A stretch of 48,373 nt of DNA from Candidatus Thorarchaeota archaeon (GCA_016839605.1 JAEOTX010000140.1:1-48373); one strand, 5' to 3'. Shown: positions 1-32,105, numbered from the stretch's first letter. Translations and numbers: made by a program. The notes: generated by a model from the sequence alone, not told the origin.

Positions 1-99
1 TTATTCGTCGTCGTCCCAATCATCATCCCATTCGTCGTAGTCATCAGCCCAGATGTCGTCATCATCATCTTCTGGTCCAAAGCGATATCTAAAGTTCAT
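1..99 (-). CDS. 32-aa Trp-containing hyperacidic peptide (MNFRYRFGPEDDDDDIWADDYDEWDDDWDDDE)
   Basis: Manual translation: ATG at 99, TAA at 3-1. A canonical archaeal SD (GAGGTGA) lies ~5 nt upstream. Too short for the ORF track. Confidence 0.7.
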   Translation of the reverse strand: MNFRYRFGPEDDDDDIWADDYDEWDDDWDDDE

Positions 100-339
100 T
101 AGATTCACCTCACGATAATGCTAATCAAAAAAGGAGTAAAGAATGACTATCAAAAGTAAAGGTAGAAAGAAGCCTTGAAATCAAATTTAGAGAATTGTAA
201 ACGCTTCTTGCCATAATTTGGAGATTTTCAAGTTGATTTCTGAATGAAGGAGATTATTGACCTCGTAGACAAGGATATTAGCAAATATGGCGTGCGCGGT
301 GATGTGTCACTATTTGTCGTTTCGGAGAACTGATGTATT

Positions 340-1161
340 GTGAGCGATGCGGACGTATCTGATTCCACTGCAATTGATGTCACAATGAAGGGACTGTCGC
401 AGCTTGTTGTAATTCTAGGTGATGCCAAGATAGTAAAAAAAACAGCAAAGAAACTCGAATCTCATGGGAAAATGGTTAGAGTTGGAAGAGGTGCATTTCT
501 TATTCATGTCCAAACTCATATCGGGAAACCACCTTTGCTGGACTTGCCAATTATAGCTTTCAAAAAGGCACGCGAGATTCCAAGTGTCAGTGAACGTGGA
601 GAAGAAGCTGGCAGCAGGCGTGTTTATTCAGTCGTTTCTTATCGTTTCAGGAGTCCTACCTCTACACAGAAGAAGAGAGTAGAGCGACTAGTTCGAAGAT
701 CAAGCTCAATTCGATTACGACCCGGAGTCCTCCTATTTCCCGTTCTGAGATCAAAGGAAAGACGAAAATTACTAGAATCCGATGAAAAGTATGTGCTAAT
801 GGATTCCAAAAAACTGAGTGAAGAGCTTCGTGGTCTCGGAGCGGAGGTGTTCAGGTGGTCGCGGCTCAAAATAGATGGTCATCTGTTCGAAATACAAAAT
901 GCCGTTGCTCGTACGTTATCACATGATTTCACATCATTTGAAACGCTGGCTAAGGATTTACGCAATCAAGCCAAAGAGCCCGAGGCGCAATTCAAGACTC
1001 TAAGGAAGCGATATGCGATTCTTTCTAAGAGATATGGTGAACTGAAATTCAAATGGAGTCGTGCTAACAAGATTTGGAGTTATGATACAACGAAATTGCT
1101 TACACGTGGCTATAATATGTTGTTGAGTGTTAGACGTGTTATTGATTCATCCGCCTCCTAA
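340..1161 (+). CDS. Basic hypothetical protein with a ChrB-N/PaaX-like (Cas2-type ferredoxin fold) central domain and a helical C-terminus
   Basis: VYSVVSYRF..S.QKKRVERLVRR..SIRLRPGVLLFP...EELRGLGAEV resembles the ChrB N-terminal/PaaX pattern; by-eye only. Confidence 0.45.
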   Translation: MSDADVSDSTAIDVTMKGLSQLVVILGDAKIVKKTAKKLESHGKMVRVGRGAFLIHVQTHIGKPPLLDLPIIAFKKAREIPSVSERGEEAGSRRVYSVVSYRFRSPTSTQKKRVERLVRRSSSIRLRPGVLLFPVLRSKERRKLLESDEKYVLMDSKKLSEELRGLGAEVFRWSRLKIDGHLFEIQNAVARTLSHDFTSFETLAKDLRNQAKEPEAQFKTLRKRYAILSKRYGELKFKWSRANKIWSYDTTKLLTRGYNMLLSVRRVIDSSAS

Positions 1162-1194
1162 GGTAGAGAGAAGTGTAGGCGGCGGTGAGATAGA
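1160..1194 (+). repeat. Intergenic repeat block A, copy 1
   Basis: AAGGTAGAGAGAAGT-GTAGG-CGGCGGTGAGATAGA; both 15-bp arms are identical to 11786-11820. Confidence 0.85.
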
Positions 1195-1210
1195 GTATTG
1201 GGGGATTACC

Positions 1211-1250
1211 CATTGCTGAGCGCCCTTTCATTTCGCAGTTGTTGGGGCGC
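1211..1250 (+). repeat. Intergenic repeat block B, copy 1, with hairpin
   Basis: CATTGCTGAGCGCCCTTTCATTTCGCAG; GCGCCC (1220-1225) pairs with GGGCGC (1245-1250). Confidence 0.85.
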
Positions 1251-1388
1251 CTGTGATTAATTAGTCCGGGGCAGGTCCGAAACCAAGGCATGACTGGCCA
1301 CCATCAAAGTGTTTGCTTACAGGATTAGCCTAAAAGGTAGTGCATACATCATTCTTGCGAGCTAGTTAACCTCAGCGGGTTGCAAATA

Positions 1389-1952
1389 ATGTCTAAGATA
1401 GAGATTAGTCCCGAGATTGCTCCATTTCCGAAGCCCATTGCCCTTGTGGGTTCGATGGTAGGCGGTCGTCCCAACTTCATTACTGTTGCTTGGTTCAATC
1501 GCCTCAACCGTAGCCCAAACATCTGGGGCGTTGCCATAAGCAAGAAGAAGTACACCCTTGAGGGTATCAAACAGCATGGCAGCTTCAGCGTAAACCTCCC
1601 CAGTGCAGACTTAGTCGAGAAGACCGACTACTGCGGACTTTACTCTGGAAGAAATGTCGACAAGTCAGTACTCTTCAACATTTTCTATGGCAAACTTGAA
1701 AATGCTCCCATGATTCGAGAGTGTCCTTTCTGTGTGGAGTGTTCGGTCTATGATTTCATCAAGCTGCCCGCAAGCATACTCGTTCTTGGAGAAGTCCAGC
1801 ATGCGTATGCCGAGGAACGCTGCATGACCGATGATGACCTTGACCCAAAGAAGATCAATCCCTTTGTCTTCACTAAACCTGGTGACAAGTATTGGGCGCT
1901 TGGCGAAGCTATTGGTGATGCATGGTCTGTAGGGAAGCACCTTGCGGAGTGA
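1389..1952 (+). CDS. Flavin reductase-like (flavoredoxin) FMN-binding protein
   Basis: P.PIALVGS..GRPNF, TLEGI...GSFSVNLP, DYCGLYSGRNVDKS, APMIRECPFCVEC; start set to ATG 1389. Confidence 0.9.
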   Translation: MSKIEISPEIAPFPKPIALVGSMVGGRPNFITVAWFNRLNRSPNIWGVAISKKKYTLEGIKQHGSFSVNLPSADLVEKTDYCGLYSGRNVDKSVLFNIFYGKLENAPMIRECPFCVECSVYDFIKLPASILVLGEVQHAYAEERCMTDDDLDPKKINPFVFTKPGDKYWALGEAIGDAWSVGKHLAE

Positions 1953-1981
1953 GTTTCTGGTCTGTACAGATACATCAGCGC

Positions 1982-2010
1982 AGAGAGATGTGTAGGCAGT
2001 GGGGGTAGAG
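1982..2010 (+). repeat. Repeat block A, degenerate copy
   Basis: AGAGAGATGTGTAGGCAGTGGGGGTAGAG aligns to 1165-1195. Confidence 0.65.
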
Positions 2011-2064
2011 GCGTGTAGGAACCAGGTTCTCCAGCACTAGATTGGCACTTGCCCTGGCTCATGC

Positions 2065-2093
2065 TGCTGAGCACCCTTTCTCTTTTGCTTCAG
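2065..2093 (+). repeat. Repeat block B, copy 2
   Basis: TGCTGAGCACCCTTTC...; CTGAGCA (2067-2073) pairs with TGCTTCAG (2086-2093) with a 1-nt bulge. Confidence 0.85.
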
Positions 2094-2173
2094 TTTCTCA
2101 AACTAGCAAAATTTGGTATTGAATTGAGATACGGTTATTTTCATGAACGCCATTAAGACAATAGGTCAATGAT

Positions 2174-2752
2174 ATGGGTTCCACTCTCCCACCTATCTTA
2201 TTCACAGATCGCCTCGTTATCCGTTCATATTGTTTAGGTGACGAGAGCTGGTACTATAAAATGAGTCAGAGAAACCGTGCACACTTAGAGAGATATGAAC
2301 CAGAAAATCCAGCAATGGCTATCAAGACTGAAGAAGATGCGAAGAAGATGATAACTGATTTTGTAAACGAGTGGAAGAAGGGTAGTCATCACTTCATGGG
2401 AGTATTCCTCAAAGAGTCCGAGCAGTTTGTCGCTCAGCTCTACGTTGGTCTTGTAAATCGAGAGGTGCATGAGTATGGAATTGGTTATTTCTCAGATGTG
2501 GAACATGAAGGCAAAGGATACGTGACAGAGGCTGTCAATACAGTAGTTAAGATGCTCTTTGAGAGTCTTAAAGCTCACAGGATTCGTATTGAAACTGATG
2601 ATACTAATCTAAGAAGCATAAATGTTGCAGAAAGATGCGGTCTTGTAAGGGAGGGCCACATTCGAGAGAATAAGAAGAACCCTGACGGCACCTACTCTGG
2701 CACTTTGTACTTTGGACTGTTGAGAAGTGAGTTTCTATTTAGTAGATCATAG
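2174..2752 (+). CDS. GNAT N-acetyltransferase, RimJ/RimL family
   Basis: TDRLVIR, YGIGYF....GKGYVTEAV, N.RS..VAERCG..REG..R motifs. Confidence 0.9.
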   Translation: MGSTLPPILFTDRLVIRSYCLGDESWYYKMSQRNRAHLERYEPENPAMAIKTEEDAKKMITDFVNEWKKGSHHFMGVFLKESEQFVAQLYVGLVNREVHEYGIGYFSDVEHEGKGYVTEAVNTVVKMLFESLKAHRIRIETDDTNLRSINVAERCGLVREGHIRENKKNPDGTYSGTLYFGLLRSEFLFSRS

Positions 2753-2778
2753 AATGTAAAACAACTCTCCCCTTCCTC

Positions 2779-2803
2779 TGTTGAGCACCCTATCATTTTT
2801 CAG
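2779..2803 (+). repeat. Repeat block B, copy 3
   Basis: TGTTGAGCACCCTATCATTTTTCAG vs TGCTGAGCGCCCTTTCATTTCGCAG (copy 1). Confidence 0.8.
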
Positions 2804-2875
2804 AATCCTCTAAAAGCATAGCTAAGATTTCCATTCAAGCTTCTGATTCAATAAACCAAACGCTAGTCCGATGGG

Positions 2876-4066
2876 CTATTTTACTTTCCTAGCAAACTCT
2901 CTTCCATACTCGTAGGCCTTCGTAAGTTCATCATCAGTGGGCACCCACTTTAGCACAAAGGGTTCCAAGACTATATCCATCTTGCCGCGCTCCATCGACT
3001 CCTGAATACGCTTCACTGATCCCCCTCCCCATCCATATGAACCAAATGCAGCACATTTCTTGCCAACTGGCTTTAGCACTTCTAAGTCCGAGAGGATTGG
3101 TGCTACAGTGGGAAGAATGTCGTTATGCAGCGTAGGACATCCCACCAAAATCCCTCTGGCTTCCAAAAGGTCTGCCATGATGTCACTCCGATCACTATGT
3201 GGAATTAGATGCAGCAATGGTGTTAGTCCTTCATCGTTCACTCCTGAGGCAATGGCCCTCGCAATCTTTGTAGTGCTCTGCCACATTGTGTCCCAGGTGA
3301 TTACAACTTTGCTGTTGATGCGTTCTCCCTTGGCCCATTCGAGATATCTGGTCACAATCTGGAGGGGGTCCTTGCGCCAAATCAGCCCATGGGAGGGTGC
3401 AATTGTCTTGATTGGTAGACCTAGCTCGACAACTTCCTCAATCTTTCTCTGCACCATGCGACTCAGTGGCCATAGAATATTCGCATAATACTTCTCTGCT
3501 TCCCGCCATAGAACGTTCTGATCCACCTCATCAGAAAACCGCTTTTCTGTTGCATAGTGTTGTCCGAATGCATCATTGGGCAATAGCATCTCTTCTTCAA
3601 CATAGTATGTAAACATGCTTTCCGGCCAATGGAGCATGGGGGCCTCATAAAACCGTAAGGTCTTTCCTCCAAGATCTACTTCTTCTCCAGTCTTGACAGT
3701 TTGTATATTCCATCCATCTGGATAGTGTTTCTTGAGAACATCAGTAGCTCTGGCAGTGCATACAAGAGTTGCATTCTTGACTCGATCAAGCACCTCAGGA
3801 ACTGCACCTGAGTGGTCCATCTCTGCATGGTTTGATATCACATATTGAATCTCGTCAGTACTGACAACACTTGATATACGCCTGAACATCTCATCTGAGA
3901 ATGGTCCATAGACCGCATCAATGAGTGCTGTCTTCTCGCCTGTGATTAAATATGCGTTATAGGTTGTCCCGTGATGGGTTGTATAGCTATAGCCATGGAA
4001 GTTGCGGACATCATAGTCAATACCGCCGACCCAATAAACATCCTTGATAATCTCGACCGCCTTCAT
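2876..4066 (-). CDS. fprA: Flavodiiron protein (A-type flavoprotein; O2/NO reductase)
   Basis: GTTYNAYLI, NHAEMDH, HWPESM, DAFGQH, APSHG, plus a flavodoxin domain (AFGSYGWGG). Confidence 0.95.
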   Translation of the reverse strand: MKAVEIIKDVYWVGGIDYDVRNFHGYSYTTHHGTTYNAYLITGEKTALIDAVYGPFSDEMFRRISSVVSTDEIQYVISNHAEMDHSGAVPEVLDRVKNATLVCTARATDVLKKHYPDGWNIQTVKTGEEVDLGGKTLRFYEAPMLHWPESMFTYYVEEEMLLPNDAFGQHYATEKRFSDEVDQNVLWREAEKYYANILWPLSRMVQRKIEEVVELGLPIKTIAPSHGLIWRKDPLQIVTRYLEWAKGERINSKVVITWDTMWQSTTKIARAIASGVNDEGLTPLLHLIPHSDRSDIMADLLEARGILVGCPTLHNDILPTVAPILSDLEVLKPVGKKCAAFGSYGWGGGSVKRIQESMERGKMDIVLEPFVLKWVPTDDELTKAYEYGREFARKVK

Positions 4067-4130
4067 AATACACACATCCTATCTCACTCCACACTGAGAT
4101 TAAAATATTGACTCGGAAATGCTGTCCTCA

Positions 4131-4193
4131 CATTGCTGAGCACCCTGTTATTTTGCATTATTTCGTTCTGAAATTGAATTTAGGGTGCTTCAG
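4131..4193 (+). repeat. Repeat block B, copy 4, with long bulged hairpin
   Basis: CATTGCTGAGCACCCTGTTATTTTGCAT; CTGAGCACCCT (4136-4146) pairs with AGGGTGCTTCAG (4182-4193) with a 1-nt bulge. Confidence 0.9.
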
Positions 4194-4200
4194 TCATCAA

Positions 4201-4431
4201 TCAGATTGCAATACAGGTCTCTGTTCTGGTGATTCCCTCTATCTTATGGATGCTTTCTAAAAACTGCTTCAACTCATTTACTGAGTTCAGTTCTGCATAT
4301 ACAATTGCATCAAATGTTCCCACCACAACTTGTACAGTCTTAACGCCCTCGATCTTTTCAATTTCTTGGCAGATGTCCCATATCCCAGTTCCAACAGCCT
4401 GTATCAGGACACTCATTCTCAGATTGCTCAT
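4201..4431 (-). CDS. Stand-alone Lrp/AsnC ligand-binding (RAM) domain protein
   Basis: 76 aa; IEGV..V.VV.G.FDAI....IHKIEGITRTETCI; SD GGAGGT upstream. Confidence 0.9.
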   Translation of the reverse strand: MSNLRMSVLIQAVGTGIWDICQEIEKIEGVKTVQVVVGTFDAIVYAELNSVNELKQFLESIHKIEGITRTETCIAI

Positions 4432-4477
4432 AGATTACCTCCTTTCGTGCATATGCCAAAAATACACGGGATCACAT

Positions 4478-4497
4478 TTATGAATTCTTATTCATAA
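4478..4497. promoter_or_regulatory. 20-bp palindromic operator-like site
   Basis: TTATGAAT-TCTT-ATTCATAA; same ATGAAT-N4-ATTCAT core as 6431 and 12792, and a near match at 16177. Confidence 0.65.
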
Positions 4498-4520
4498 TAA
4501 GATTGAGAGTGCTCATCTTA

Positions 4521-4548
4521 CATTGCTGAGCACCCAGTCCTTTTACAT
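4521..4548 (+). repeat. Repeat block B, copy 5
   Basis: CATTGCTGAGCACCCAGTCCTTTTACAT; first 15 bp identical to 4131. Confidence 0.9.
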
Positions 4549-4581
4549 TGAATCAAGCATATTGTTGTCATAACGAAGTTA

Positions 4582-5352
4582 CTACTCTCGTTTCTTGATA
4601 CTCTCATGAAACTTGAAACTCAGATACAAGAACAACAGACTTGTGACAACAAGGGCGATGATACTTGCTTCTAATGGAATATTGAAGGATTCGACACCTA
4701 ATCCTCTGCGAACTAAAACCAAGGTGTGTGTTAATGGTGATAGGCATGCAACGACCTGACCTATGAGTGGCAGTTCCCCAATCGGAATGAAGACCCCGCT
4801 AATGAACAAGAGTGGAATCCTGACAAAGTTAAGAGGCATCATAATGTTGCCCACCGATTCAGTGGGGACTGAAGCGAACATGATTCCCATGGCTGCAAAC
4901 GCAAAACATGAGAGAATGATGCCAAGAGCTAGTGCAATGACATTCATGACTCCGGCTTGAAAAATAAAGATGCCAATTAGGAGTGGGGCGATGGACACTA
5001 GGAGACCAAAGAAGATTCCAGCCAGTGTCTTTCCTAGGAGCACAGAGAAGAGAGACATTGGTGCGGACAGGTAGCGATCAAATGTCTTTGTCCTTCTTTC
5101 AAGGGGGATGACAACTGGACCGACGGTTGATGAAGCCCAAAAGACGGTCTGTGAGAGTAGAATTGGGAGCGACTGCAAGGAACTTAGGTTTCTTCCAACC
5201 GTGAAGGTGAAAAAGAGAGCGATTGGGAATAGGACTCCAAACATCAGCGATGGTGGAGTTAGATAATATGTTCTCATGTCTTTCCATGCTATTGCCCAAG
5301 CTCGAGCGGATTCCTTCCTCAGTCTGTCTAATCTTACTCCCTGTTGCATCAA
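4582..5352 (-). CDS. ABC-2 type exporter permease
   Basis: ~6 TM segments, ERRTKTFDRYLSAPMS, FISGVFIP, SPLT motifs. Confidence 0.9.
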   Translation of the reverse strand: MMQQGVRLDRLRKESARAWAIAWKDMRTYYLTPPSLMFGVLFPIALFFTFTVGRNLSSLQSLPILLSQTVFWASSTVGPVVIPLERRTKTFDRYLSAPMSLFSVLLGKTLAGIFFGLLVSIAPLLIGIFIFQAGVMNVIALALGIILSCFAFAAMGIMFASVPTESVGNIMMPLNFVRIPLLFISGVFIPIGELPLIGQVVACLSPLTHTLVLVRRGLGVESFNIPLEASIIALVVTSLLFLYLSFKFHESIKKRE

Positions 5353-6353
5353 TGATCGGACCTCCTTGGTCCAACTGGACCCCGTCTTCCAGACATTTTT
5401 CCCAAGCCCTTTGGCCTTTCAACAATCTCCTCGCCAGTCATCTCGAGGAACACGTCCTCCAGACTTGGACTGAGAGTATTGACGCTGAGGAGTCGTATAT
5501 TGTTTCTCTCCGAAAATTGAAAGATTCCAGCAAGCACCTCAGGCGGACTGAGCGTCAGTAGTCGAAGCTTGTTGCCTCGTTTCTGAACTCCTCGAACTCC
5601 ATGTAGCTCTTCCATTTCTTTTACTAGATGTGAGCTGCTACTGTCAAACACAACCTCAACAGAGTGAACCCGATCCATTGCCTGCTTCAATCTTTCAGGA
5701 GTGTCAATGGTGGCAATTCTCCCCTGACTAATGATTGCCACCCGATTGCAAAGCTCGCTTGCTTCAGTCATGTTATGAGTAGTCAGAAAGATTGTAGTAC
5801 CGCTCGAATTCAATTTCATGATCAACTCATGAATCACCCTCACGCTTTGAACATCTAGTGCGGTCGTTGGTTCATCAAGAAAGAGCACACTCGCATCGTT
5901 CACAAGAGCCATTGCAATAGTCAGCCGCCGTCTCATCCCTCCTGAAAAGCCCTTCACGCTCTCATGACGGACATCATAAAGACCGAACATCTCAAGGAGC
6001 TCTCTTGCCTTATCTAGACGTTTTTCTTTGGGAAGCCCATAGAGTTTTCCCGTGAAGATTAGATTCTCTTGTGCGGACAGGTCAAGATACACATTTGAGA
6101 TGTCTGTCACTACTCCCATCTGCTCCTTTGCGTCAAAGGCTTGCTTTTGAATGTCGAAGCCCATAATCTGAGCTGAACCTTCTGTGGGTGTCGATATACA
6201 TGTCAACATCCTAGTCGTGGTAGTCTTCCCAGCACCATTCGGACCAAGAAAACCAAAGATCTCCCCTTGTGACACGGAGAAATTGATATGATTGACCGCA
6301 AGCAGTTCCCCGTAGGCTTTTGTCAGATTCCTTACTTCTATTGCAGATACCAA
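5349..6353 (-). CDS. ABC exporter ATP-binding subunit (DrrA-like)
   Basis: Walker A GPNGAGKTT, signature FSGGM, Walker B LFLDEPT, H-loop TTH. Confidence 0.95.
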   Translation of the reverse strand: MVSAIEVRNLTKAYGELLAVNHINFSVSQGEIFGFLGPNGAGKTTTTRMLTCISTPTEGSAQIMGFDIQKQAFDAKEQMGVVTDISNVYLDLSAQENLIFTGKLYGLPKEKRLDKARELLEMFGLYDVRHESVKGFSGGMRRRLTIAMALVNDASVLFLDEPTTALDVQSVRVIHELIMKLNSSGTTIFLTTHNMTEASELCNRVAIISQGRIATIDTPERLKQAMDRVHSVEVVFDSSSSHLVKEMEELHGVRGVQKRGNKLRLLTLSPPEVLAGIFQFSERNNIRLLSVNTLSPSLEDVFLEMTGEEIVERPKGLGKMSGRRGPVGPRRSDH

Positions 6354-6430
6354 TCAACGCATCTCCTGAGATATCTCAATCCCGCAGAATCCAATGATGA
6401 ATGATTCGTCGAGTTGATGAACACACAAAA

Positions 6431-6450
6431 TAATGAATCAAGATTCATTA
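6431..6450. promoter_or_regulatory. Perfect 9-2-9 palindrome, operator-like
   Basis: TAATGAATC-AA-GATTCATTA in the divergent intergenic region; arms identical to 12792-12811. Confidence 0.75.
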
Positions 6451-6756
6451 AAAAGAAGCCGGTCTGATAAACGCTTCATAATTTCAAAGCAGTGTCATCA
6501 TTCAGAGCACAGGTTTAGCACCAAAGATACATCTTGGAAGTACCAATTAATCATTAGAACAATCAGTTTTCGAAAAATTGAACTTCTTGACGAAAACAAA
6601 TTAATGAAATTCGTGCCGAATCTACATATATGCTAATTATTCATATTCGGGTTGGAATCCGATTGGATTTCCCATAATGCGGGGAGTACCAGAATACGTC
6701 ACCACCACAATCCAATATGGATAATCCCTCAGCATAGATGCTATGAGGCGGTCCGA

Positions 6757-9700
6757 TTGAGGAGAAAGTCGTATATCCTGGTAATAGTTCTCACAGCCTT
6801 ACTGGCTTGGCTACCATACTCCAATTCTACGATGAACTTGTGGCAATCTGAAACACACTTAGACCAAACAGTCGAACGTGAGGACATTGGCTACTCATCA
6901 GCAGACATTCAAACTGGATATTTAGATGCTCTGACCATAGAGCAATCTGGTGCTGACGCAGAACCAGTTAATAATCCTCAGGTTCGAACTGACCAAGTTC
7001 ACTATCCACAATGCAGCCTTGATCTTGATGTTGCATCTGACTGGAAAGGCAAACAGATCGAAGTGAAAGTCGATAATCTGAAGAGGCTCTATGCCTTAAA
7101 CGGAACTTTCGACGAGGGCATCCCAGGTGTGAATCTAAATCCAAATGGCGGTGTGTCATTTCATCCCCTTGGGTGGGACGCTTACAGCGACGACATAAGC
7201 TTCTATGAATATCAGCGTGCATCCTACGTTGACCAGTCGCCCTCTTACATTTCCGTGGAGAACCAAGGACGAACCTATACAGACTCGGGCGACTTGGAAT
7301 ATTTCCGCCATTACTCTGGTACCTATGTTCTATGGTCACAACAGATAAGTTCAGTTCCTTCCACCGAAGACTTCCTATTCAGCATTGATTTCCTGTACGA
7401 TAGTGGTCCTCTGGGCTCGAGATTTAGCAGTGACTTCTTTCTCAGGGCTGTGTTGAAGGATGGATTCACTGAGTGGCCAATCTGGGAGATAGACCCGACG
7501 GGTCTTGCTGAGAGAGATGTCTGGTTCAACGTCGACTCAGTTCCTGTGAGCTTCTCCAGTCTGCCTTCTACGCTTGAGATTCAAGTGGGTCTAACAATCC
7601 AAAATCAAATGTATATTGATTGGGACGATTCCAACTGTGATGGTGACCCTGGCAATTCCAAGTTCATAAGAGCGTTCTTCGACAATGTTTCCTTAGTTGC
7701 GGCCACGCCCCCAGAATTCATTGATGTAGGACTACAGGCCTCTGTTCAGCCTATAGGCGCAACACCCCTAGTTGGCAGTGCAGGAATCGGTCAAGCTTTG
7801 TTGAACCATAGTTTTTGGGAGAGCGACCCAATTACAGTAACACTGTCATCGAGCCTGCCAGTGTCCTTCGATTACGAAGCGAGATTCAGTCATGTGGTTC
7901 GATGGCTCAACTCAAGTCATACTAGATCTCCTACAGATTTTGGTGTATCATATTCGGTCGACTTCGGTAGGAGCCCTCGTTTAACACTCTACACACATAT
8001 AGAATACCATGGTGAATATAGTAACTTTACAGTAGGACTGAACCATCCTAGGGATTGGGAGAACACAACAGTGCTTGATTCGTTTTCCAATGATGTGACT
8101 GGACAATGCAACATCGGGCAAGACAATTTCGAGATAGGTGGAGGTATCCTTGATTCTCTAGGCTGGTGGAGTGTTTCATTCGATGCTCCAAATTATGCAA
8201 TGAGTCTAAGTCCGCAATGGTTCAACAATACTTCTACCACATGGCAAGATGAAATGATGTTCAATTGCGGAGATGACATCCGTGCATCACTCAAAATTGG
8301 TACTCCGGTTTCTGCTCCTGTATCTGTTGATGGAATTGATGTATCATGGTACCTCCCCAATGAAACAATGTGGTCAAGCGAGGAGCTAAGCGGGAGTGGA
8401 GGAGTTGATATCTTCAGTAGCGGTCAAATTCTGGGCGCAGTTAACACAACACCAGGTATATGGGATCTCGTGATACTATGGACCAACGGATCTGAAGTGG
8501 CCTATGACAAGATGGATTTTGAGGTCCACCATTCACTGGTTCTAGTGCCGGTCTTCACATCAATTCAGGCAGAGATGGGAACCAATGCCACAGGTGCAGT
8601 CAGGCTGATTGATTCAGACAACGGAAATCCACTACTTGACGGATTGGCTACAATTACCGGCAATTGGTCGGGTGCCAGTGTTCAATTCAAACCAAACAGT
8701 GCCAAAGGATGGTGGGAGGCTGACTTCAATACAACTCTGATGGGCACTGGGAATTTCACAGTGATTGTCAATGCATCACGTTCATACTATGAAGAAACCA
8801 CTAGTTCCTTTGAGATTCAGATCATAACTGATGCTGTCATGGAGTTTATGGATACAGAATATGTTGAGATAGGGCTTAGTGGTACGTACCCTGCCGTATT
8901 CAGATACCAATATCTTGATGGCACTGGAATATCTGATGCATTAATACAGGTGATGACATGGACAGGTCCTGATGGCGGTCTGATCAGTAGTGCTACGACA
9001 CAGGTGTCAGGACAACCTGGGAATTATTCTATTGACTTTAGTGCCATACTCAGTGGGACCTACTATATCATAGTTTCAGGATCAAAAATCAACCACAAGA
9101 CGACCACATCTTCCTTCTATCTGGTAGTGGGAGAGCTTGGAACACAGCTTCTCCTTCTGAATGAGTCTGCTGCTACTATCGACGCAGAGGGTAACTATAC
9201 AGTGGCGGTCCAATACTTGAATGGCACCGGAGAGGGGCTGAGTGGTGCAGAAGTTGGTGTTATCAGCATGGCACCAGAATCCGGTCTGAACTTCTCCGTG
9301 TCGAATTATCATGGAAATGGGACCTACTCGATTTTTCTGCACCCCGAGAATCATGGGACCTTCTCGCTCATTATTGGAGCGAGCTTGGTCAACCACGAGT
9401 CTCAATTTGTTTCTTTCACGCTAACTGTATCACCACTTGCAAGCATTCTTTCATTAGACACATCAACAGGTCACATTGCTCTTGATAGAAATCACACCCT
9501 TACTCTCACGTTTCAGGATGAGGGTCTAGCTGGCCTTGAAAATGCAAGTATCACTATACTATCCATAATTCCTTCCACAGGTGTTGATTTTTCGAATCTA
9601 ACTGACCTCGGAGGAGGCAATTACTCCATAATCCTGATTCCATTAGTGGGAAATGACTATGAGATTGTGTTCAGAGCATCTCTTCCTAGATATCAGAATG

Positions 9701-11763
9701 CGACCGCAGTATTTACTCTCTACGTCACAGATGCTGAAACGACTCTTCGAACGGCTGATGGCTTGAATATTGGGAATACATACTATAATGAAACGCTCGA
9801 GATTACCCTCCTATTTGAGAGAGTGGACTTCCCGGCTAATATCAGCTTAGCCATTATAGAAGTAGAAAGTGCTGAGGGTTTCAGCTTTGCTGTTGCTGAA
9901 CAACTTGATAGATATATCCTACAAGTCAGATCCACGGTACTTGGGACTTACTTCTTGACAATCAGAGCAACAAGAAGTGGCTATCAGAACGGGACCTTGG
10001 TGTTCAAACTCATTGTATATGAAACACCGACAAGTGTAGTAGGCTCAGGTCCAGCTGCTATCATGTATTCTGGTGTTTCAAATTCATTCATACTGTGGTA
10101 TAATATGAGTGACACTACTGGAATTGATGAGGCCACAGTCAACATCACATATACTCCCTTTGACATCACTTGGTCGGAAGTGGGGAACGGGTATTACGAA
10201 TTCAACTTCACTTCAGGTGCCCCCGGCGACTATTCAATTTCGATACGACTCTCAAAGCACGGATTCCAGATAGTGGATCGGGTATACACATTCGAAGTGA
10301 GAAGGATTCCTACTACTGTACATTGTATTGATCCACCTGCTGCATTTTACTTGACGCGCACCTACAACATATCGTTCTTTTTCAACTCTAGCATAATTAA
10401 TGGCATAGATGGTGCCGATTTCTATCCGCCTCCTCAGATTGAAACATTCTTCTTATTCGAGTCCGGAGGACATGGCTGGTATAATTTCACCCTGACACCT
10501 ACAATTCTTGGTGATTGGAATGCTACTTTCCGCTTTGAAAAGTCAGGCTTCGAAACTCATGCTCTCAGTTTCATAATGGTAGTTGAGAAGATACCCCTTG
10601 CAATTGCGCCAGGCTACGAATTCGAATCGACATACCAAAAAGGTGAATTCAACCAAATGGATATGACTCTGGGATTAGTCGCCGCCGACACCGGTGAGGC
10701 TGTAGCAGACGCAATAGTTGAATACATAATCTTGGACTATGCAACTCAGCAGCAACTAGGAATTGTCCGAAGCTTCATAGAAACCTCTGGTTTGTACAGC
10801 GTTCGCATTGAGATGCCTCCAGCGGGACTATACGTCCTTAACATCACAATTTCAAAGGAAAATCACGGGACTATCTCGGTAACATTGCTTCTTGATGTGG
10901 AACCAGATTTGACAGCTCGGATGATGATCTCCATTCGAAGCTTTCTACCTTATGGAGCGCAAGTGCTTGGTCTAGCCATTGCAGCAATACTTGGTCGTCA
11001 GGCTTACAAGAAAAGAAGCGCCCGAAGGAACCTTGAGCTTCTGGCTTTAGAATCCCGCTTTCAGGATGCCAGCAGTATCATTGGTTTCTTTGTAATCCAT
11101 CGACATACTGGCTTACCGGTTTTCTCCAGGGTGTTGAAAGGCGGACTTGAGGAGGCTCTCGTGAGTGGTTTCATTTCAGCCATTTCTCAATTCAGAGCTG
11201 AGTTTCAAGAGGAGGAGCGGCTGTGGACTGCAACTCCAATCTCGGAGATTATCACTGCTGTACAGACCGAGGTGCTGATATGCGCCATTTTCACAACAAG
11301 CTCACCATCATCAAGGCAAACTGATAATCTTGAAGCTGTTGGAAGGGCTGTTGGGGCATTGTTTGACCAAGATACCGAAACACTCACACGCATGACAATG
11401 AGCGCAGAAGCAGCCGGAGCGTTCGAGAGAACTTTCGATCAGATTTTTGGCGAGTTTCTTGATGGTAAATTGCTCGATTTGTATACGGGCATCGAAACGG
11501 AGCATCTGTCCAGAGAGTACAGACCACTTGAACGAGTGATGGGCGATATCGATGCTAGTGAAGGAGTGAGGCCCATTGAATTAGTCAAGAAGATGGTCTT
11601 AGCAGGAACAGACGAGCTCAAGACATATAGTCTAGTTCTAAGAGCAATTGAAACAGGTCTACTAACTCTGCCAGATCCAGACCATCGTTCTAGTTCTGAA
11701 ATCTACGGAATACCTGAAGAAGGTCGAGATGATTTGCTCTTGGATGACACCGATGAAATCTGA
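6757..11763 (+). CDS. Large single-pass surface glycoprotein (Ig-like beta repeats) with a cytoplasmic longin-like domain
   Basis: Probable TTG start at 6757 after GAGGCGG. Signal peptide RRKSYILVIVLTALLAW; more than 30 N-x-S/T sequons; repeated GNYSI/G.Y.I.I.AS units; TM near FLPYGAQVLGLAIAAIL; tail IIGFFVIHRHTGLPVF..LVSGFISAISQF. Confidence 0.75.
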   Translation: MRRKSYILVIVLTALLAWLPYSNSTMNLWQSETHLDQTVEREDIGYSSADIQTGYLDALTIEQSGADAEPVNNPQVRTDQVHYPQCSLDLDVASDWKGKQIEVKVDNLKRLYALNGTFDEGIPGVNLNPNGGVSFHPLGWDAYSDDISFYEYQRASYVDQSPSYISVENQGRTYTDSGDLEYFRHYSGTYVLWSQQISSVPSTEDFLFSIDFLYDSGPLGSRFSSDFFLRAVLKDGFTEWPIWEIDPTGLAERDVWFNVDSVPVSFSSLPSTLEIQVGLTIQNQMYIDWDDSNCDGDPGNSKFIRAFFDNVSLVAATPPEFIDVGLQASVQPIGATPLVGSAGIGQALLNHSFWESDPITVTLSSSLPVSFDYEARFSHVVRWLNSSHTRSPTDFGVSYSVDFGRSPRLTLYTHIEYHGEYSNFTVGLNHPRDWENTTVLDSFSNDVTGQCNIGQDNFEIGGGILDSLGWWSVSFDAPNYAMSLSPQWFNNTSTTWQDEMMFNCGDDIRASLKIGTPVSAPVSVDGIDVSWYLPNETMWSSEELSGSGGVDIFSSGQILGAVNTTPGIWDLVILWTNGSEVAYDKMDFEVHHSLVLVPVFTSIQAEMGTNATGAVRLIDSDNGNPLLDGLATITGNWSGASVQFKPNSAKGWWEADFNTTLMGTGNFTVIVNASRSYYEETTSSFEIQIITDAVMEFMDTEYVEIGLSGTYPAVFRYQYLDGTGISDALIQVMTWTGPDGGLISSATTQVSGQPGNYSIDFSAILSGTYYIIVSGSKINHKTTTSSFYLVVGELGTQLLLLNESAATIDAEGNYTVAVQYLNGTGEGLSGAEVGVISMAPESGLNFSVSNYHGNGTYSIFLHPENHGTFSLIIGASLVNHESQFVSFTLTVSPLASILSLDTSTGHIALDRNHTLTLTFQDEGLAGLENASITILSIIPSTGVDFSNLTDLGGGNYSIILIPLVGNDYEIVFRASLPRYQNATAVFTLYVTDAETTLRTADGLNIGNTYYNETLEITLLFERVDFPANISLAIIEVESAEGFSFAVAEQLDRYILQVRSTVLGTYFLTIRATRSGYQNGTLVFKLIVYETPTSVVGSGPAAIMYSGVSNSFILWYNMSDTTGIDEATVNITYTPFDITWSEVGNGYYEFNFTSGAPGDYSISIRLSKHGFQIVDRVYTFEVRRIPTTVHCIDPPAAFYLTRTYNISFFFNSSIINGIDGADFYPPPQIETFFLFESGGHGWYNFTLTPTILGDWNATFRFEKSGFETHALSFIMVVEKIPLAIAPGYEFESTYQKGEFNQMDMTLGLVAADTGEAVADAIVEYIILDYATQQQLGIVRSFIETSGLYSVRIEMPPAGLYVLNITISKENHGTISVTLLLDVEPDLTARMMISIRSFLPYGAQVLGLAIAAILGRQAYKKRSARRNLELLALESRFQDASSIIGFFVIHRHTGLPVFSRVLKGGLEEALVSGFISAISQFRAEFQEEERLWTATPISEIITAVQTEVLICAIFTTSSPSSRQTDNLEAVGRAVGALFDQDTETLTRMTMSAEAAGAFERTFDQIFGEFLDGKLLDLYTGIETEHLSREYRPLERVMGDIDASEGVRPIELVKKMVLAGTDELKTYSLVLRAIETGLLTLPDPDHRSSSEIYGIPEEGRDDLLLDDTDEI

Positions 11764-11785
11764 GCTTGATCAATCAATATCTTCC

Positions 11786-11820
11786 AAGGTAGAGAGAAGT
11801 AGATTCGGCGGTGAGATAGA
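11786..11820 (+). repeat. Repeat block A, second full copy
   Basis: AAGGTAGAGAGAAGT-AGATT-CGGCGGTGAGATAGA; 30/35 identical to 1160-1194, with all differences in the 5-bp centre. Confidence 0.9.
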
Positions 11821-11908
11821 AAGTCATAGCACAAGTTGTCTGCTATCAACATATTCAATCGAGTGGCAAGGCTGATGCATTTGTCAGATTTCGAGGCACA
11901 TTTTATCA

Positions 11909-12742
11909 TTACAGCCCAATTATTTCACTGATTTGACTGACTACAGCACCAAAGGCCTTGGCTGCTTTGGAGTCTGGATTCTCCTCCACAAATGGTGTCC
12001 CCTTATCAGACAGGCTGATGATTCTCGGGTCCAATGGTAATGACCCTAAATGGCGTATTCCAAAATCGTCTGCAGCCTTCTTAGTCACTCCTTCTCCGAA
12101 CAGCTTGTATGTTTCACCACACTTTGGACACACAAACTCGCTCATGTTCTCTACTATACCCAAAATAGGAACGCCCATTCTTTCCACAAGTCGAATCGCC
12201 CGACGTGCATCAAGCACAGCAACTTCCTGAGGTGTTGATACAATGATTACTCCATCTATATCTGGAATTGACTGAAGAATGCTTAGTATCTCATCTCCGG
12301 TGCCAGGAGGCAAGTCTACGACTAGAACATCCATTTCTCCCCACATCACGTCACTCAGGAACTGACGAATAGCTTTTCCAACAAGTGGCCCTCTCCAGGC
12401 GATCGCGTCATCTGTCTGTCTGAGAAGAAAGCCCATACTCATTACTTTAAGATTGAGTGGTCCCCTTATGGGTCGAATTCTTTCATTCTCTGCTTCTGGA
12501 TGAAGACCCTCGAGACCCAATAGCTTTGGGACATTTGGTCCATATATGTCAACATCGAGAATACCGGACTTCAGCCCTTTCTTGGCGAAAGACATTGCTA
12601 AATTCGTAGCCACAGTGGTTTTCCCAACGCCGCCTTTACCAGAGAGTACCACGATCTTATGCTTTACATCTTTCATGTTCGCTCTGACCTCGGGCGGAAC
12701 CAAGTCCTTTCCGTCAGTAACTGTGTTGGTCATGCATGACAC
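11909..12742 (-). CDS. mrp: Mrp/ApbC/NBP35 family Fe-S cluster carrier ATPase
   Basis: SGKGGVGKT, DVDIYGP, WRGP, DLPPGTGDE, VENMS..CPKC. Confidence 0.95.
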   Translation of the reverse strand: MSCMTNTVTDGKDLVPPEVRANMKDVKHKIVVLSGKGGVGKTTVATNLAMSFAKKGLKSGILDVDIYGPNVPKLLGLEGLHPEAENERIRPIRGPLNLKVMSMGFLLRQTDDAIAWRGPLVGKAIRQFLSDVMWGEMDVLVVDLPPGTGDEILSILQSIPDIDGVIIVSTPQEVAVLDARRAIRLVERMGVPILGIVENMSEFVCPKCGETYKLFGEGVTKKAADDFGIRHLGSLPLDPRIISLSDKGTPFVEENPDSKAAKAFGAVVSQISEIIGL

Positions 12743-12791
12743 CTGCTTGGTTGTTTCCTTTCAGTCCATTAAGAATATACAACCACACGAG

Positions 12792-12811
12792 TAATGAATC
12801 CTGATTCATTA
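12792..12811. promoter_or_regulatory. Perfect 9-2-9 palindrome upstream of mrp
   Basis: TAATGAATC-CT-GATTCATTA. Confidence 0.75.
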
Positions 12812-12891
12812 TAAAGGAGTCGGTACAGGAACTGCTTGCTATTTCAGAGGTCAGTAGCGATGTGCTATCAGTTCGACTCAGTAATTTTATT

Positions 12892-12908
12892 CATTGCTGA
12901 GCATCCTG
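12892..12908 (+). repeat. Repeat block B, copy 6
   Basis: CATTGCTGAGCATCCTG (16/17 to the 4131 copy). Confidence 0.8.
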
Positions 12909-13029
12909 GTGAAGATTAGAAGCACGGCAAGTATGTAGCATGCGACCGGCCGTTTTCATGCATCTGAAAGGGATGGATAAGTTCCGAGAGAGAAACTTCC
13001 GAAGTACATATGATAGTGAACTGAATTTA

Positions 13030-13524
13030 CTATTTCAGCTGATAGTAGTGATCACAGCAAGTATCACCGCTCATTAGCTTCTTTGTTATTTTAAACTCCA
13101 TTTTCGGATTGAATCCAGCTACAATGTGAGGGTCTGTGCTGCAATGAAATATCAGTCCATACTCTGGTTTTCCAATTTCAAGATAGGTGTCTGCCATTGG
13201 GCATTTCGTGCAATGAATCTGTGCTGAATCTTCAGTTCTCTCTACGGTGAATTCTCCGCCTACGGAACTAAAAGATTTCCAGAGAGTATCAAGAATTCCG
13301 TCAATGCCGATGTTTTCTCTCTCCGAAGCAACTTCAGCCCAAACCTCTCTGGTCATTTCAGCGATTATATCCAGAACTTGCTCATTGGCCTCGGTTCCAA
13401 AATCATTCTCATACTTCTCGAGGAGATCTTTTAGCTTCTTGGGATTTGATCGGGCAGCACGAATGTCATTAACAAGCTCTCGCAGCTCATGACTTGTTGA
13501 TTCTGATTCATTCATTCTTTTCAC
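13030..13524 (-). CDS. L-2-amino-thiazoline-4-carboxylate hydrolase-like (V4R-related) protein
   Basis: CTKCP....G..E.G..FHCSTD....GFNP...F..TKKLM.GD.CCDH. Confidence 0.8.
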   Translation of the reverse strand: MKRMNESESTSHELRELVNDIRAARSNPKKLKDLLEKYENDFGTEANEQVLDIIAEMTREVWAEVASERENIGIDGILDTLWKSFSSVGGEFTVERTEDSAQIHCTKCPMADTYLEIGKPEYGLIFHCSTDPHIVAGFNPKMEFKITKKLMSGDTCCDHYYQLK

Positions 13525-13650
13525 AAGCTTCAGCTCACAGTTTCAAACATAAAAGCAGGCAGCTTCGCGCAGGATAAAACAGGCCTGGGCTTTTTCGGAG
13601 GTGACAATCTAATTCGAGATTCTATTATGCTATACTCCTATGGCAGATGC

Positions 13651-14004
13651 ATGAGTGTATTGCTGATTCTGAACAATCCTGCCTACGGTACAGAACGCTC
13701 ATACAACGGGCTGCGTCTAGCCCGGCAACTGAAGAAGGAGAATCCTGACCTGGATGTGCGTGTCTTCTTGATTGGTGATGCTGTATCTTGTGCAGTGTCT
13801 GGTCAAAAGACCCATGATGGCTACTATAATCTAGAGAGGATGATACGAGCTCTAATCCCAAAGAAAGTCGCCATCAAATGCTGCGGAACATGTCTTGATG
13901 CGCGTGGTCTGACTGAGGGTTCCTTGGTTTCTGGAGCAAAACAAGGGAGCATGAGTGACCTAGCAAAATGGACTTCTGAAGCTGATAAGGCAGTCACTTT
14001 CTGA
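13651..14004 (+). CDS. DsrE/YchN family sulfur-relay protein
   Basis: PAYGTERSYNGLRLA, VFLIGDAV, CGTCLDARG, LAKWT..ADK..TF. Confidence 0.9.
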   Translation: MSVLLILNNPAYGTERSYNGLRLARQLKKENPDLDVRVFLIGDAVSCAVSGQKTHDGYYNLERMIRALIPKKVAIKCCGTCLDARGLTEGSLVSGAKQGSMSDLAKWTSEADKAVTF

Positions 14005-32089: not shown

Positions 32090-32105
32090 CATTGTCAGCA
32101 CCCTG
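32090..32105 (+). repeat. Repeat block B, degenerate copy 7
   Basis: CATTGTCAGCACCCTG vs CATTGCTGAGCACCCTG; intergenic and in the same orientation. Confidence 0.5.

Follow-up and report, generated by a model that had tools for sequence, protein, structure and literature searches.

A strand-locked intergenic repeat borders exchangeable gene modules in Thorarchaeaceae and may mark an integron-like cassette system

Introduction

In a 48,373-nt stretch of a Candidatus Thorarchaeota assembly (the window, meaning the whole stretch that was analysed), single accessory genes alternate with copies of a short repeat, every copy on the same strand. This arrangement raises the question of what the repeat is, and whether it has a part in moving the genes that it separates. 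A first-pass annotation, made from this sequence alone, had marked a motif, block B, in five consecutive intergenic spacers, and read its copies either as recombination sites or scars of an integron-like capture system acting in trans, or as serial insertions of a small non-autonomous element. Single genes are stored and shuffled as cassettes by integrons, to our knowledge the one such system that is well understood, and this requires IntI and folded attC sites.

The repeat unit and its copies

Pattern and profile searches recovered block B on the plus strand at all five positions first given for it (1211, 2065, 2779, 4131 and 4521). A 27-mer matched at 1211, 4131 and 4521 with 1-3 mismatches, where 100 shuffles gave an expectation of 0, and the 12-nt core TGCTGAGCACCC was found with 0-1 mismatch at 1214, 2065, 2779, 4134, 4524 and 12895, always on the plus strand. 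A profile built from six copies re-finds all six (E 1.5e-8 to 3.3e-4) and beyond them gives nothing below E 0.87 across the 3.08-Mb assembly; by this search the copies are confined to 1-13 kb of this contig. All six sit between ORFs, which bears out the early remark that none lies in coding DNA. The two outlying copies of the first-pass annotation fared differently: the one at 12892 is real but only a half copy, and the one at 32090 is recovered by no profile and is unsupported.

Block B is a true repeat, and its extent had been drawn too small. Its 24-bp core, CATTGCTGAG/CACCCTTTCATTTT (the slash separates the two halves), forms the 3' part of a composite unit of about 85-105 nt whose 5' part is block A. 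The full unit is asymmetric and reads, from 5' to 3', an optional inverted repeat, block A, a short GGGnnnnnnCCC element and the 24-bp core. Block A (GGTAGAGAGAAGT..GGCGGCGGTGAGATAGA) contains three TAGAG repeats and GGCGGCGG; one copy of it lies upstream of B at 1160, a second, of a long variant, lies upstream of B at 1979, and the one at 11780 is solitary. The only palindrome in the core, by direct inspection, is the 9-bp TGCT-G-AGCA.

Features of the array and its flanks are collected in Table 1. The first unit starts at the stop codon of ORF1, and successive copies 1 to 5 enclose one gene each, a flavin reductase (+), a GNAT acetyltransferase (+), a flavodiiron protein with ODP and flavodoxin domains (-) and an Lrp/AsnC ligand-binding (RAM) protein (-), so that ORF and Pfam annotation agrees with the single genes first reported. 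The G+C content is 45.1% in the array and 46.9% in the remaining contig, and a foreign signature is absent.

Table 1. Repeat units, cassette genes and flanking genes, in window coordinates
Feature	Position	Strand	Remarks
ORF1, conserved flanking gene	340..1161	+	
Unit 1, full short type	1151..1242	+	A 1160-1194, spacer, B core 1211-1237; nhmmer 98 bits, model R1 75.9 bits
Flavin reductase-like, cassette gene	1380..1952	+	Pfam PF01613 2.2e-22
Unit 2, long type	1968..2094	+	~30-nt insert between A-like start and B core; TGCTGAGCACCC at 2065-2076
GNAT acetyltransferase, cassette gene	2174..2752	+	Pfam PF13302 1e-18
Unit 3, B core only, TGTTGAGCACCC variant	2776..2803	+	1 mismatch; profile E 1.8e-5
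Flavodiiron-type protein, cassette gene	2876..4075	-	ODP beta-lactamase fold and flavodoxin
Unit 4, B core only	4115..4160	+	core 4131-4157; 28.2 bits
Lrp/AsnC ligand-binding (RAM) domain protein, stand-alone, cassette gene	4201..4431	-	Pfam PF01037 1.1e-9
Unit 5, B core only	4506..4549	+	core 4521-4547
ABC-2 permease and ABC ATPase, two-gene cassette	4582..6353	-	
Core-like motif cattCAGAGCACagg, tentative	6493..6512	+	left breakpoint of 1703-aa gene; profiles do not detect it
1703-aa gene	6652..11763	+	missing from G001 contig C8, elsewhere collinear
Block A alone	11779..11821	+	distal end of array, beside mrp 3' end
mrp/NUBPL-type P-loop ATPase, conserved gene flanking far side	11909..12742	-	Pfam PF10609 2.7e-98; synteny
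Left half of B core	12887..12907	+	CATTGCTGAG/CATCCT, then unrelated sequence

Spread and strand rule among relatives

A profile scan of the relatives (Ca. Thorarchaeota MAGs) found unit arrays there as well. The unit profile is positive in 69 of 86 genomes and in 13 of the 16 genera of the family, with further co-oriented arrays in other genera; outside the family it is positive, weakly, in 1 of 125 Asgard genomes. A total of 120 units were mapped on 28 contigs from more than 15 MAGs and metagenome contigs, nearly all of them intergenic, with a median spacing of 1.4 kb (range 11-11,393 bp). Six copies on one strand are weak evidence by themselves (p about 0.03), and the strand rule is compelling because the relatives' 120 units on 28 contigs are unmixed: none of the 24 contigs with at least two units has mixed strands. 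The strand of the repeat is independent of gene direction, as annotated. In practice, searches with model R1 or with the core motif could locate the pool of variable genes in these uncultured organisms.

The genes carried in the arrays are diverse, with 179 ORFs falling into 111 clusters that include PIN (5 clusters), ParE, GNAT, ABC-2, MFS, P-type ATPase, CLC channel, and Fe-S and radical-SAM proteins. They lie in both orientations, and some modules consist of four genes. A metagenome contig (L067) carries an ABC-2 permease/ATPase pair similar to the one seen here, with units at both sides, and in two relatives the units come after the 3' end of a glutamate dehydrogenase gene. A recurrent array protein of 78 aa looks beta-grasp-like by eye and has no Pfam match.

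Exchange of modules at the core

Gene content varies between relatives with breakpoints at the repeat, a pattern that the first-pass annotation had suggested looking for. One flank is common to 46 unit pairs (28 upstream only, 18 downstream only) and both flanks to 4, counts in which mis-joins at repeats could inflate the reshuffling signal, all sequences being metagenome assemblies. On contig C8 of G001, where the flanks are 95-96% identical to those here, other genes lie between the ORF1 homologue and the ABC pair, homology restarts at unit 5 (position 4516), and the right half of the core alone stands at the position corresponding to the half copy at 12887..12907. Contig C51 of the same genome has the same long-type unit as unit 2, likewise between flavin reductase and GNAT genes, and in G005 a different gene follows the unit downstream of the flavin reductase. 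Flavodiiron-type homologues occur without flanking units in four relatives, and on a contig of G009 (C4) the ORF1 homologue is directly beside mrp, with no unit or array between them.

The breakpoints converge on block B. Contigs L018 and L068 have in common a 647-bp antitoxin-ParE module, 97.5% identical and with unrelated DNA on either side, which starts at AG/CACCCTTTCATTTT (AG/CACCC) and ends at CATTGCTGAG/. Lone right half-cores were found three times, against about 0.4 expected by chance, and lone left halves twice, in array contexts. Ends of one-flank-shared alignments cluster at -15 to +14 relative to the core, but clustering alone cannot fix the crossover, since conservation of the unit forces alignment ends near its edges. 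Mapping the crossover by identity profiles of these pairs was rejected as uninformative within the unit, because background identity there is already 60-80%.

Much of this could in principle come about if the unit were a passive conserved repeat and modules were shuffled, inside one cell or between related ones, by gene conversion or common homologous recombination from unit to unit, so that neither a special enzyme nor a special site would be needed. Stretches of 85-95 bp match at 75-95% between units, mosaics occur among them (two units that follow the same flavin reductase gene diverge within block A), and upstream linkage fades gradually inside block A. No recombinase was found near the arrays of five genomes, and not all indels proceed unit by unit: a 7-kb module present in G015 is missing in G005, where the site carries no unit, and a second indel between relatives leaves a truncated core. 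Against such exchange, copies of only the 24-nt core, too short for efficient homologous exchange, border modules with equal frequency, half cores abut unrelated DNA, and the two borders of the ParE module fall at the same core position. It also leaves unexplained how unrelated genes acquire units, why the unit is conserved over 13 genera and why mapped copies are never inverted. Homologous exchange seems an unlikely account on its own, and even if it drives the shuffling, a strand-locked repeat of about 90 bp kept over 13 genera needs explaining.

A proposed cassette system

The reading that we favour, with modest confidence, is that the units are the recombination sites of an integron-like cassette system, new to the literature searched, whose enzyme is not encoded beside the arrays. 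Block B would be the core of a site that borders exchangeable gene modules, each beginning with the CACCC... half of one core, continuing with one or several genes and an A block, and closing with the ...CATTGCTGAG half of the core that follows. Modules would be excised and inserted core against core, probably through circular intermediates and by site-specific exchange, and this would hold all units on one strand. The outcome would be a variable chromosomal array of accessory genes, at this locus between ORF1 and mrp, so that the job of a chromosomal integron may be done with a linear duplex site and no attC hairpin. The comparative evidence that suits the original integron-like proposal consists of the co-oriented arrays of many genomes, the change of neighbours at the repeat, the convergence of breakpoints on block B, the lone half-cores and the G001 cassettes; counting against it are the lack of a recombinase near the arrays and at least one indel between relatives that is not simple unit by unit.

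The putative recombinase would act in trans from a gene away from the arrays. Searches for tyrosine, serine (PF00239) and Y1 recombinases near arrays found none in five array-bearing genomes. A six-frame search of these genomes (77-90% complete) with PF00589 gave a single match, which lies about 79 kb away from the array of G004; the other four had none, and no IntI-like gene was found. Recurrent array genes (the 78-aa protein, HTH_10 regulators, an MFS transporter and glutamate dehydrogenase) were considered as enzymes and rejected, being judged cargo. ORF1 was also rejected as the recombinase: it is single-copy, and its family is not specific to the unit, being present in several other Asgard families without it. 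Its model (pLDDT 85) has ferredoxin-like domains and a bundle of three helices, it matches PaaX and Cas2 only weakly, and a profile search against the PDB returned nothing.

More tentatively, Thorarchaeaceae may possess an independent, non-IntI form of gene capture, with circular modules of 1-4 genes, a 24-bp asymmetric duplex core and an accessory arm of about 60 bp, a recombinase outside the PF00589, PF00239 and PF01797 profiles that is encoded off the array, and arrays that persist through diversification of the family. No description of this repeat was found in the literature consulted on aloposons, archaeal integrons (including supplements) and Atabeyarchaeia mobile elements, or by keyword searches. 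If the proposal is true, it provides a second, unrelated route to cassette gene shuffling, conserved across an Asgard family, and cassette-type capture evolved more than once. It would also give a concrete mechanism of accessory-gene flow in a lineage studied for eukaryote origins, and direct attention to a recombinase, with a compact target of 24 bp, that are perhaps unlike known ones.

Further alternatives

The unit might instead serve expression, as an insulator, a small RNA gene, or a 3' UTR or terminator; it would then be retained beside accessory genes for the sake of regulation, and its place at the borders of modules would be secondary. In many cases a co-oriented gene precedes it, with 0-40 nt between the stop codon and the start of the unit, the last part of the unit is a T-rich run, TTTCATTTT, similar to the termination signals of archaea, and a 5' inverted repeat of 12-14 bp (CTTCTTTACCTT-CT-AAGGTAGAGAGAAG and variants) gives a strong stem in about one third of units (z -2.8 to -4.2). 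Yet about 40% of unit-flanking genes point the opposite way, the copy at 2779 lies between the convergent GNAT and flavodiiron genes, and others are upstream of minus-strand genes, by 56 and 90 bp. As for RNA structure, alifold gives the consensus of the short and of the long units a folding energy close to zero (-2.1 and -1.6 kcal/mol), covariation is weak, and an Rfam scan of positions 1-14,000 with E up to 1 gave no match; column-wise counting found 64% paired cells against 61% in shuffles, so no structural claim is made. One consensus frame is open, but a coding role was rejected because copies differ by 1-nt indels. Regulation leaves strict co-orientation and half cores unexplained, and we judge this account improbable.

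Serial insertion into one region, whether of a non-autonomous miniature transposon or of transposon ends that abut, appears very unlikely, and the serial-insertion half of the first-pass annotation is disfavoured. Such an element would suit the many similar copies, the patchy distribution of sequence types among genera and a TnpB-like gene within one array region (G007 contig C162); in five searched genomes, TnpB-like genes lie away from the arrays. However, the unit has ends that bear no relation to each other, with no terminal inverted repeats joining them and no target duplications. Copies are array-confined and never of mixed orientation, flanking DNA travels with the unit as a module, the Y1 transposase family PF01797 was not found in five genomes (control genomes were positive), and viral contigs hold no exact match to the core pattern.

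It is scarcely credible that this is a CALIN, a canonical integron array that lacks its integrase, with attC sites that have merely diverged: the architecture and the toxin- and GNAT-rich cargo recall sedentary chromosomal integrons and attC arrays are described in Asgard MAGs, two of them Thorarchaeaceae (PMC9668308), but single-strand DNA folds of five units on both strands (z -1.8 to +1.6 against shuffles) gave no significant hairpin, R boxes are rare, the five array-bearing genomes yielded no IntI-like gene, and the core motif is not in those text supplements of that study that were searched. Nor is there a hairpin at the B end; the hairpins first noted at copies 1 and 4, in which the core pairs with a complement downstream, are no general feature; over 129 units the distribution of best complements equals that of shuffled sequence.

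Comparison with known systems

The first-pass annotation had set the repeat apart from CRISPR arrays, dif sites and attC, and these distinctions are upheld. CRISPR arrays have regular spacing and spacers of 25-50 nt, and here spacing runs from 11 to 11,393 bp with whole genes in the gaps. The fixed position and gene-following orientation of an operator are absent, as core-to-start distances are about 56, 85, 90 and 150 bp and one copy sits between convergent genes. The unit likewise shows none of the Y1 HUH transposase and subterminal hairpins at both ends that define IS200/IS605, nor the terminal inverted repeats, target-site duplication and dispersed copies in either orientation of MITEs. 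Like REP/BIME elements, MITEs and neisserial intergenic mosaic elements, it is a conserved, intergenic, lineage-specific repeat; theirs, however, are genome-wide, palindromic or with inverted ends, in both orientations, and do not border modules that move with their flanks.

The pdif modules of Acinetobacter plasmids use XerC/XerD sites of 28 bp (11-6-11) in alternating orientation. There too short sites border discrete modules in different contexts and the enzyme is encoded elsewhere, but the core of our unit has no 11-6-11 dyad and all copies are direct. Tandem att-site arrays arise by serial integration at one site, as in tRNA-linked islands such as Prochlorococcus tycheposons. They resemble the present array in that one-strand direct repeats part cargo in a variable island starting at the 3' end of a conserved gene, and differ in that most segments here consist of one gene, with integrase, replication and virion genes absent, and in that the unit belongs neither to a tRNA nor to any other gene that occurs elsewhere in the genome.

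From integrons the unit differs in being asymmetric and linear, without an imperfect palindrome, R/L boxes or a single-strand hairpin: of 75 units, 8 have the R' box GTTRRRY (the GTTGAGC core variant) and 1 has the R'' box RYYYAAC. Genes of the unit arrays point either way and many have a long 5' region of their own, with up to four genes to a module, and the crossover would fall at CTGAG/CACCC, whereas that of integrons is G/TT. The array nonetheless has the co-oriented sites parting variable cassettes by which integrons are recognised. As in sedentary chromosomal integrons and CALINs, same-strand, lineage-specific repeats part small, diverse accessory modules, toxin-antitoxin and acetyltransferase genes abound in the cargo, the integrase need not adjoin, and content varies among close relatives while the flanks are conserved.

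Copies in the window and anatomy of the unit

A pattern search of the window with the 27-nt consensus of block B, allowing up to three mismatches, returned three matches where shuffled sequence would give none, and a 12-nt core found six copies. A profile built on these six picked up all of them in the 3.08-Mb assembly, in which the window is contig C67 (E 1.5e-8 to 3.3e-4), and gave no further match under E 0.87 in the entire assembly. The first-pass annotation had described same-strand copies outside coding DNA, independent of gene orientation, with exactly one gene between successive copies 1 to 5; all copies in the window are indeed intergenic and on the + strand, and ORFs and Pfam agree on the single genes. 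The + strand repeats that it listed from 1211 to 12892 are real, but no profile supports the copy that it placed at 32090.

Repeat finding revealed a second block, A (GGTAGAGAGAAGT..GGCGGCGGTGAGATAGA), which forms the 5' part of a larger unit of about 85-105 nt ending in block B. The unit consensus comes from aligned copies of relatives, 48 at first and 75 later. It consists of a 5' segment (cTTTACCTTC TAA followed by GGTAGAGAGAAGTAGAGGCGGCGGTGAGATAGAGTATT), then GGGGAAATGCCC and TTCTCA, and a 3' segment, CATTGCTGAGCACCCTTTCATTTT. Besides short units and long units with an insert of about 30 nt (such as window unit 2), other genera have further types, and in many cases only the 24-nt B core is present. 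Within the core is a 9-bp palindrome, TGCT-G-AGCA. An inverted repeat of 12-14 bp at the unit 5' end, strong in roughly one unit in three, differs in step between types; because its column-wise statistics are weak, it was recorded as a lead only.

Features of the window, with positions on the contig
Feature	Position	Strand	Description
Micro-ORF	1-115	-	divergent, acidic; contig start
ORF1	340-1161	+	273 aa, no Pfam match; family in several Asgard families
Block A	1160; 1979 (variant); 11786 (alone)		repeat finding
27-nt consensus, up to 3 mismatches	1211, 4131, 4521	+	block B
12-nt core, 0-1 mismatch	1214, 2065, 2779, 4134, 4524, 12895	+	TGCTGAGCACCC
Cassette gene 1	between copies 1 and 2	+	flavin reductase (ORF, Pfam)
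Cassette gene 2	between copies 2 and 3	+	GNAT (ORF, Pfam)
Cassette gene 3	between copies 3 and 4	-	flavodiiron-type protein (ORF, Pfam)
Cassette gene 4	between copies 4 and 5	-	stand-alone Lrp/AsnC ligand-binding (RAM) protein
ABC-2 permease and ATPase pair	after copy 5		ORF, Pfam
Palindrome	6430-6450; 12792-12812		TAATGAATCnnGATTCATTA, near-perfect, arms 95% complementary
Core-like motifs	6495; 11757		cattCAGAGCAC; aatCTGAGCTTG
1703-aa gene	6652-11763		missing from the otherwise collinear G001:C8
Ras/Rab-like GTPase	14009-15082		C-terminal coiled coil; Pfam Ras 3.9e-40

Distribution and arrangement of units

When other genomes of the genus were searched by BLAST with a 101-nt unit, 12 of 15 proved to have clustered copies on one strand. 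The wider profile scan that the first-pass annotation had proposed used R1, a model built on sequence only, and found the unit widespread in the family (69 of 86 genomes, 13 of 16 genera) and nearly absent outside it: in a phylum-wide sample, 22 of 26 family genomes were positive, against 1 of 125 from other families, and that one weakly. This makes the unit a trait of the family as a whole, its sequence drifting with lineage.

In the loci retrieved, nhmmer found 120 units on 28 contigs, spaced 11 to 11,393 bp apart (median 1.4 kb), and every one of the 24 contigs with at least two units keeps them on a single strand. The same rule holds in another nine loci, drawn from four genera of the family, and on the contigs listed for the R1 scans; on none of these are copies randomly oriented. 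Two unit regions, on G012:C14 (~21-67 kb) and G015:C15 (~20-50 kb), far exceed the window's array in size, spanning 30-46 kb with at least 15 units on one strand.

Units sit between ORFs, save for two marginal overlaps, which concern an ORF lacking any Pfam match and a start that is probably over-extended. About 60% of neighbouring genes are co-oriented with the unit, which frequently starts at or just past the stop codon of such a gene. Only in ORF1 orthologues is the conserved TAA of the unit used as the stop codon; an ArsR-like gene ends at its position, the stop codon being TAA in G004 and TAG in G011. In G004 (L012:703-1491) and G005 (L020:8168-9505), arrays start right where a glutamate dehydrogenase gene ends, just as the window's array starts where ORF1 ends; 3' ends of conserved genes seem to be favoured positions for units.

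Modules and their borders

The genes between copies were compared among relatives, and the modules were found to differ, with breaks at the repeat. Downstream of the flavin reductase cassette lies GNAT in the window and in G001, and another gene in G005. Over the Ras region and the ABC pair, contig C8 of G001 matches the window at 95-96% identity. In the stretch from its ORF1 homologue to the ABC pair the genes are different ones, encoding a CLC channel, a small beta-grasp-like protein and two further products. Besides the 1703-aa gene, whose indel is tentatively bounded by two core-like motifs, this contig lacks the ATC-hydrolase/DsrE pair. An hdr cluster directly follows the ORF1-adjacent unit in G002 and G011. 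In G009, the ORF1 homologue and mrp, the gene to the right of the array, are arranged tail to tail, and the roughly 25-30 bp that separate them contain no unit, which makes window 1161-11786, with A+B at its start and a lone A at its end, look like inserted material. Of the pairs formed by 57 units with usable flanks, 28 have only the upstream flank in common, 18 only the downstream flank, and 4 both.

A 647-bp antitoxin-ParE segment is common to L018, from G009, and L068, an estuarine metagenome contig (97.5% identity over the aligned stretch, near-identical for most of its length), and the DNA outside it is unrelated on both sides. The segment starts at ...AG↓CACCCTTTCATTTT (arrow, border), takes in the genes and a complete A block, and ends at CATTGCTGAG↓; its left border in L068 is a bare right half-core. 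A second junction between these loci begins within the T-rich core end despite differing upstream unit types, and homology between the window and G001 resumes at CAT(T/A)GCTGAG↓CACCC of copy 5, upstream of which the sequence is unrelated. Among pairs with one flank in common, alignment ends cluster at -15 to +14 of the core, a figure to be read knowing that unit conservation pushes alignment ends to unit edges. Array contexts also contain three lone right halves, where chance predicts about 0.4, as well as two lone left halves. These comparisons suggest the core as the exchange point, most likely around CTGAG↓CACCC, in which case each module would carry block A at its 3' end. Between G015 and G005, a 7-kb module ends exactly at the unit 3' end opposite an empty site without a unit, and a second indel left a truncated core behind; neither indel is clean.

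Cargo and neighbouring genes

Array cargo amounts to 179 ORFs in 111 clusters and does not differ from the backbone in G+C content. PIN-domain proteins are the commonest family, with five distinct clusters, accompanied by ParE and GNAT proteins, transport proteins (ABC-2 and MFS transporters, a heavy-metal P-type ATPase, a CLC channel), a prismane-family protein, Fe-S and radical-SAM proteins, methyltransferases, regulators and a histidine kinase. A protein of about 78 aa without a Pfam match (MIEVLLYGNLKE...DRDTIELNQ), beta-grasp/ThiS-like as judged by eye, recurs at seven loci in six genomes (L024:890-1162, L012:6732-6977 and five others), and in five of the seven it lies just 3' of a unit on the same strand.

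The palindrome in the window lies upstream of the divergent region between the ABC and giant genes and again upstream of mrp, where G001 also keeps it, and may be a shared operator. The GTPase with its C-terminal coiled coil is of a kind typical of Asgard archaea, and it helps to assign the window to the Thor-type lineage.

Search for an enzyme

In five array-bearing genomes, six-frame searches turned up a single tyrosine recombinase, no serine recombinase over the curated cut-off and no Y1 transposase, and the TnpB-like genes of these genomes are distant from the arrays. The first-pass annotation had proposed looking for a copy beside a recombinase; none adjoins an array in these genomes, and the tyrosine recombinase lies about 79 kb from the array in G004. 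The window's own genome has 11 matches to a TnpB/Cas12f-like domain, on other contigs. Scanned cargo holds no mobile-element hallmark genes apart from a 576-aa TnpB/Cas12f-like gene within an array region of G007:C162 (L030:9979-11709).

ORF1 adjoins the array in the window and in G001, G002 and G011, has degenerate remnants in G010 and G015, and is single-copy in most genomes carrying it. Its model (pLDDT 85) has two ferredoxin-like domains and a three-helix bundle, with weak Cas2 and PaaX matches. As a candidate enzyme it was rejected: the family also occurs in several Asgard families without the unit, and the fold is uninformative. In several same-genus genomes, ORF1 homology extends over the micro-ORF.

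Interpretation and comparison with known systems

The evidence is comparative throughout and comes from metagenome assemblies, the MAGs stemming from mangrove, estuarine and other sediments. One conserved asymmetric sequence, never inverted, lies between small diverse accessory modules; these recur in new contexts with borders at the 24-bp core, half-cores are joined to foreign sequence, and content varies among relatives with conserved flanks. Directional, site-specific module exchange is the best explanation of this pattern. Its main rival, homologous exchange between passive repeats, would account for the mosaic units and for the absence of a found enzyme, yet leaves the 24-bp borders, the half-cores, the unit conservation and the strand rule unexplained, and seems unlikely. 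The other readings fit worse than either. A regulatory unit is improbable, and no fixed distance to start codons was found, as a transcription factor site might show. Fainter still is the prospect of a MITE-like element: there is no MITE- or REP-like dispersal, and viral contigs gave no exact match to the core pattern. That the array is a canonical integron is scarcely credible, as the units have no attC boxes; as first described, their spacing is also not CRISPR-like, and they match no Rfam family, show no consensus fold or significant single-strand fold, and have no general hairpin partner for the core.

Integrons with canonical attC have been described in some Asgard MAGs (PMC9668308), and aloposons and integrated elements of Atabeyarchaeia in published work. 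The accessible portions of this literature hold no description of the unit repeat, and the core motif is missing from the text-form part of the integron paper's supplements (PMC9668308). There is a substantial chance that the unit system is mechanistically new. Integron-like capture in trans, as originally proposed, fits the exchange of modules at the repeat. Directional, site-specific exchange would make the system a functional analogue of the chromosomal integron, and on the sequence comparisons we lean towards this reading, with an unrelated site and a putative enzyme encoded in trans.
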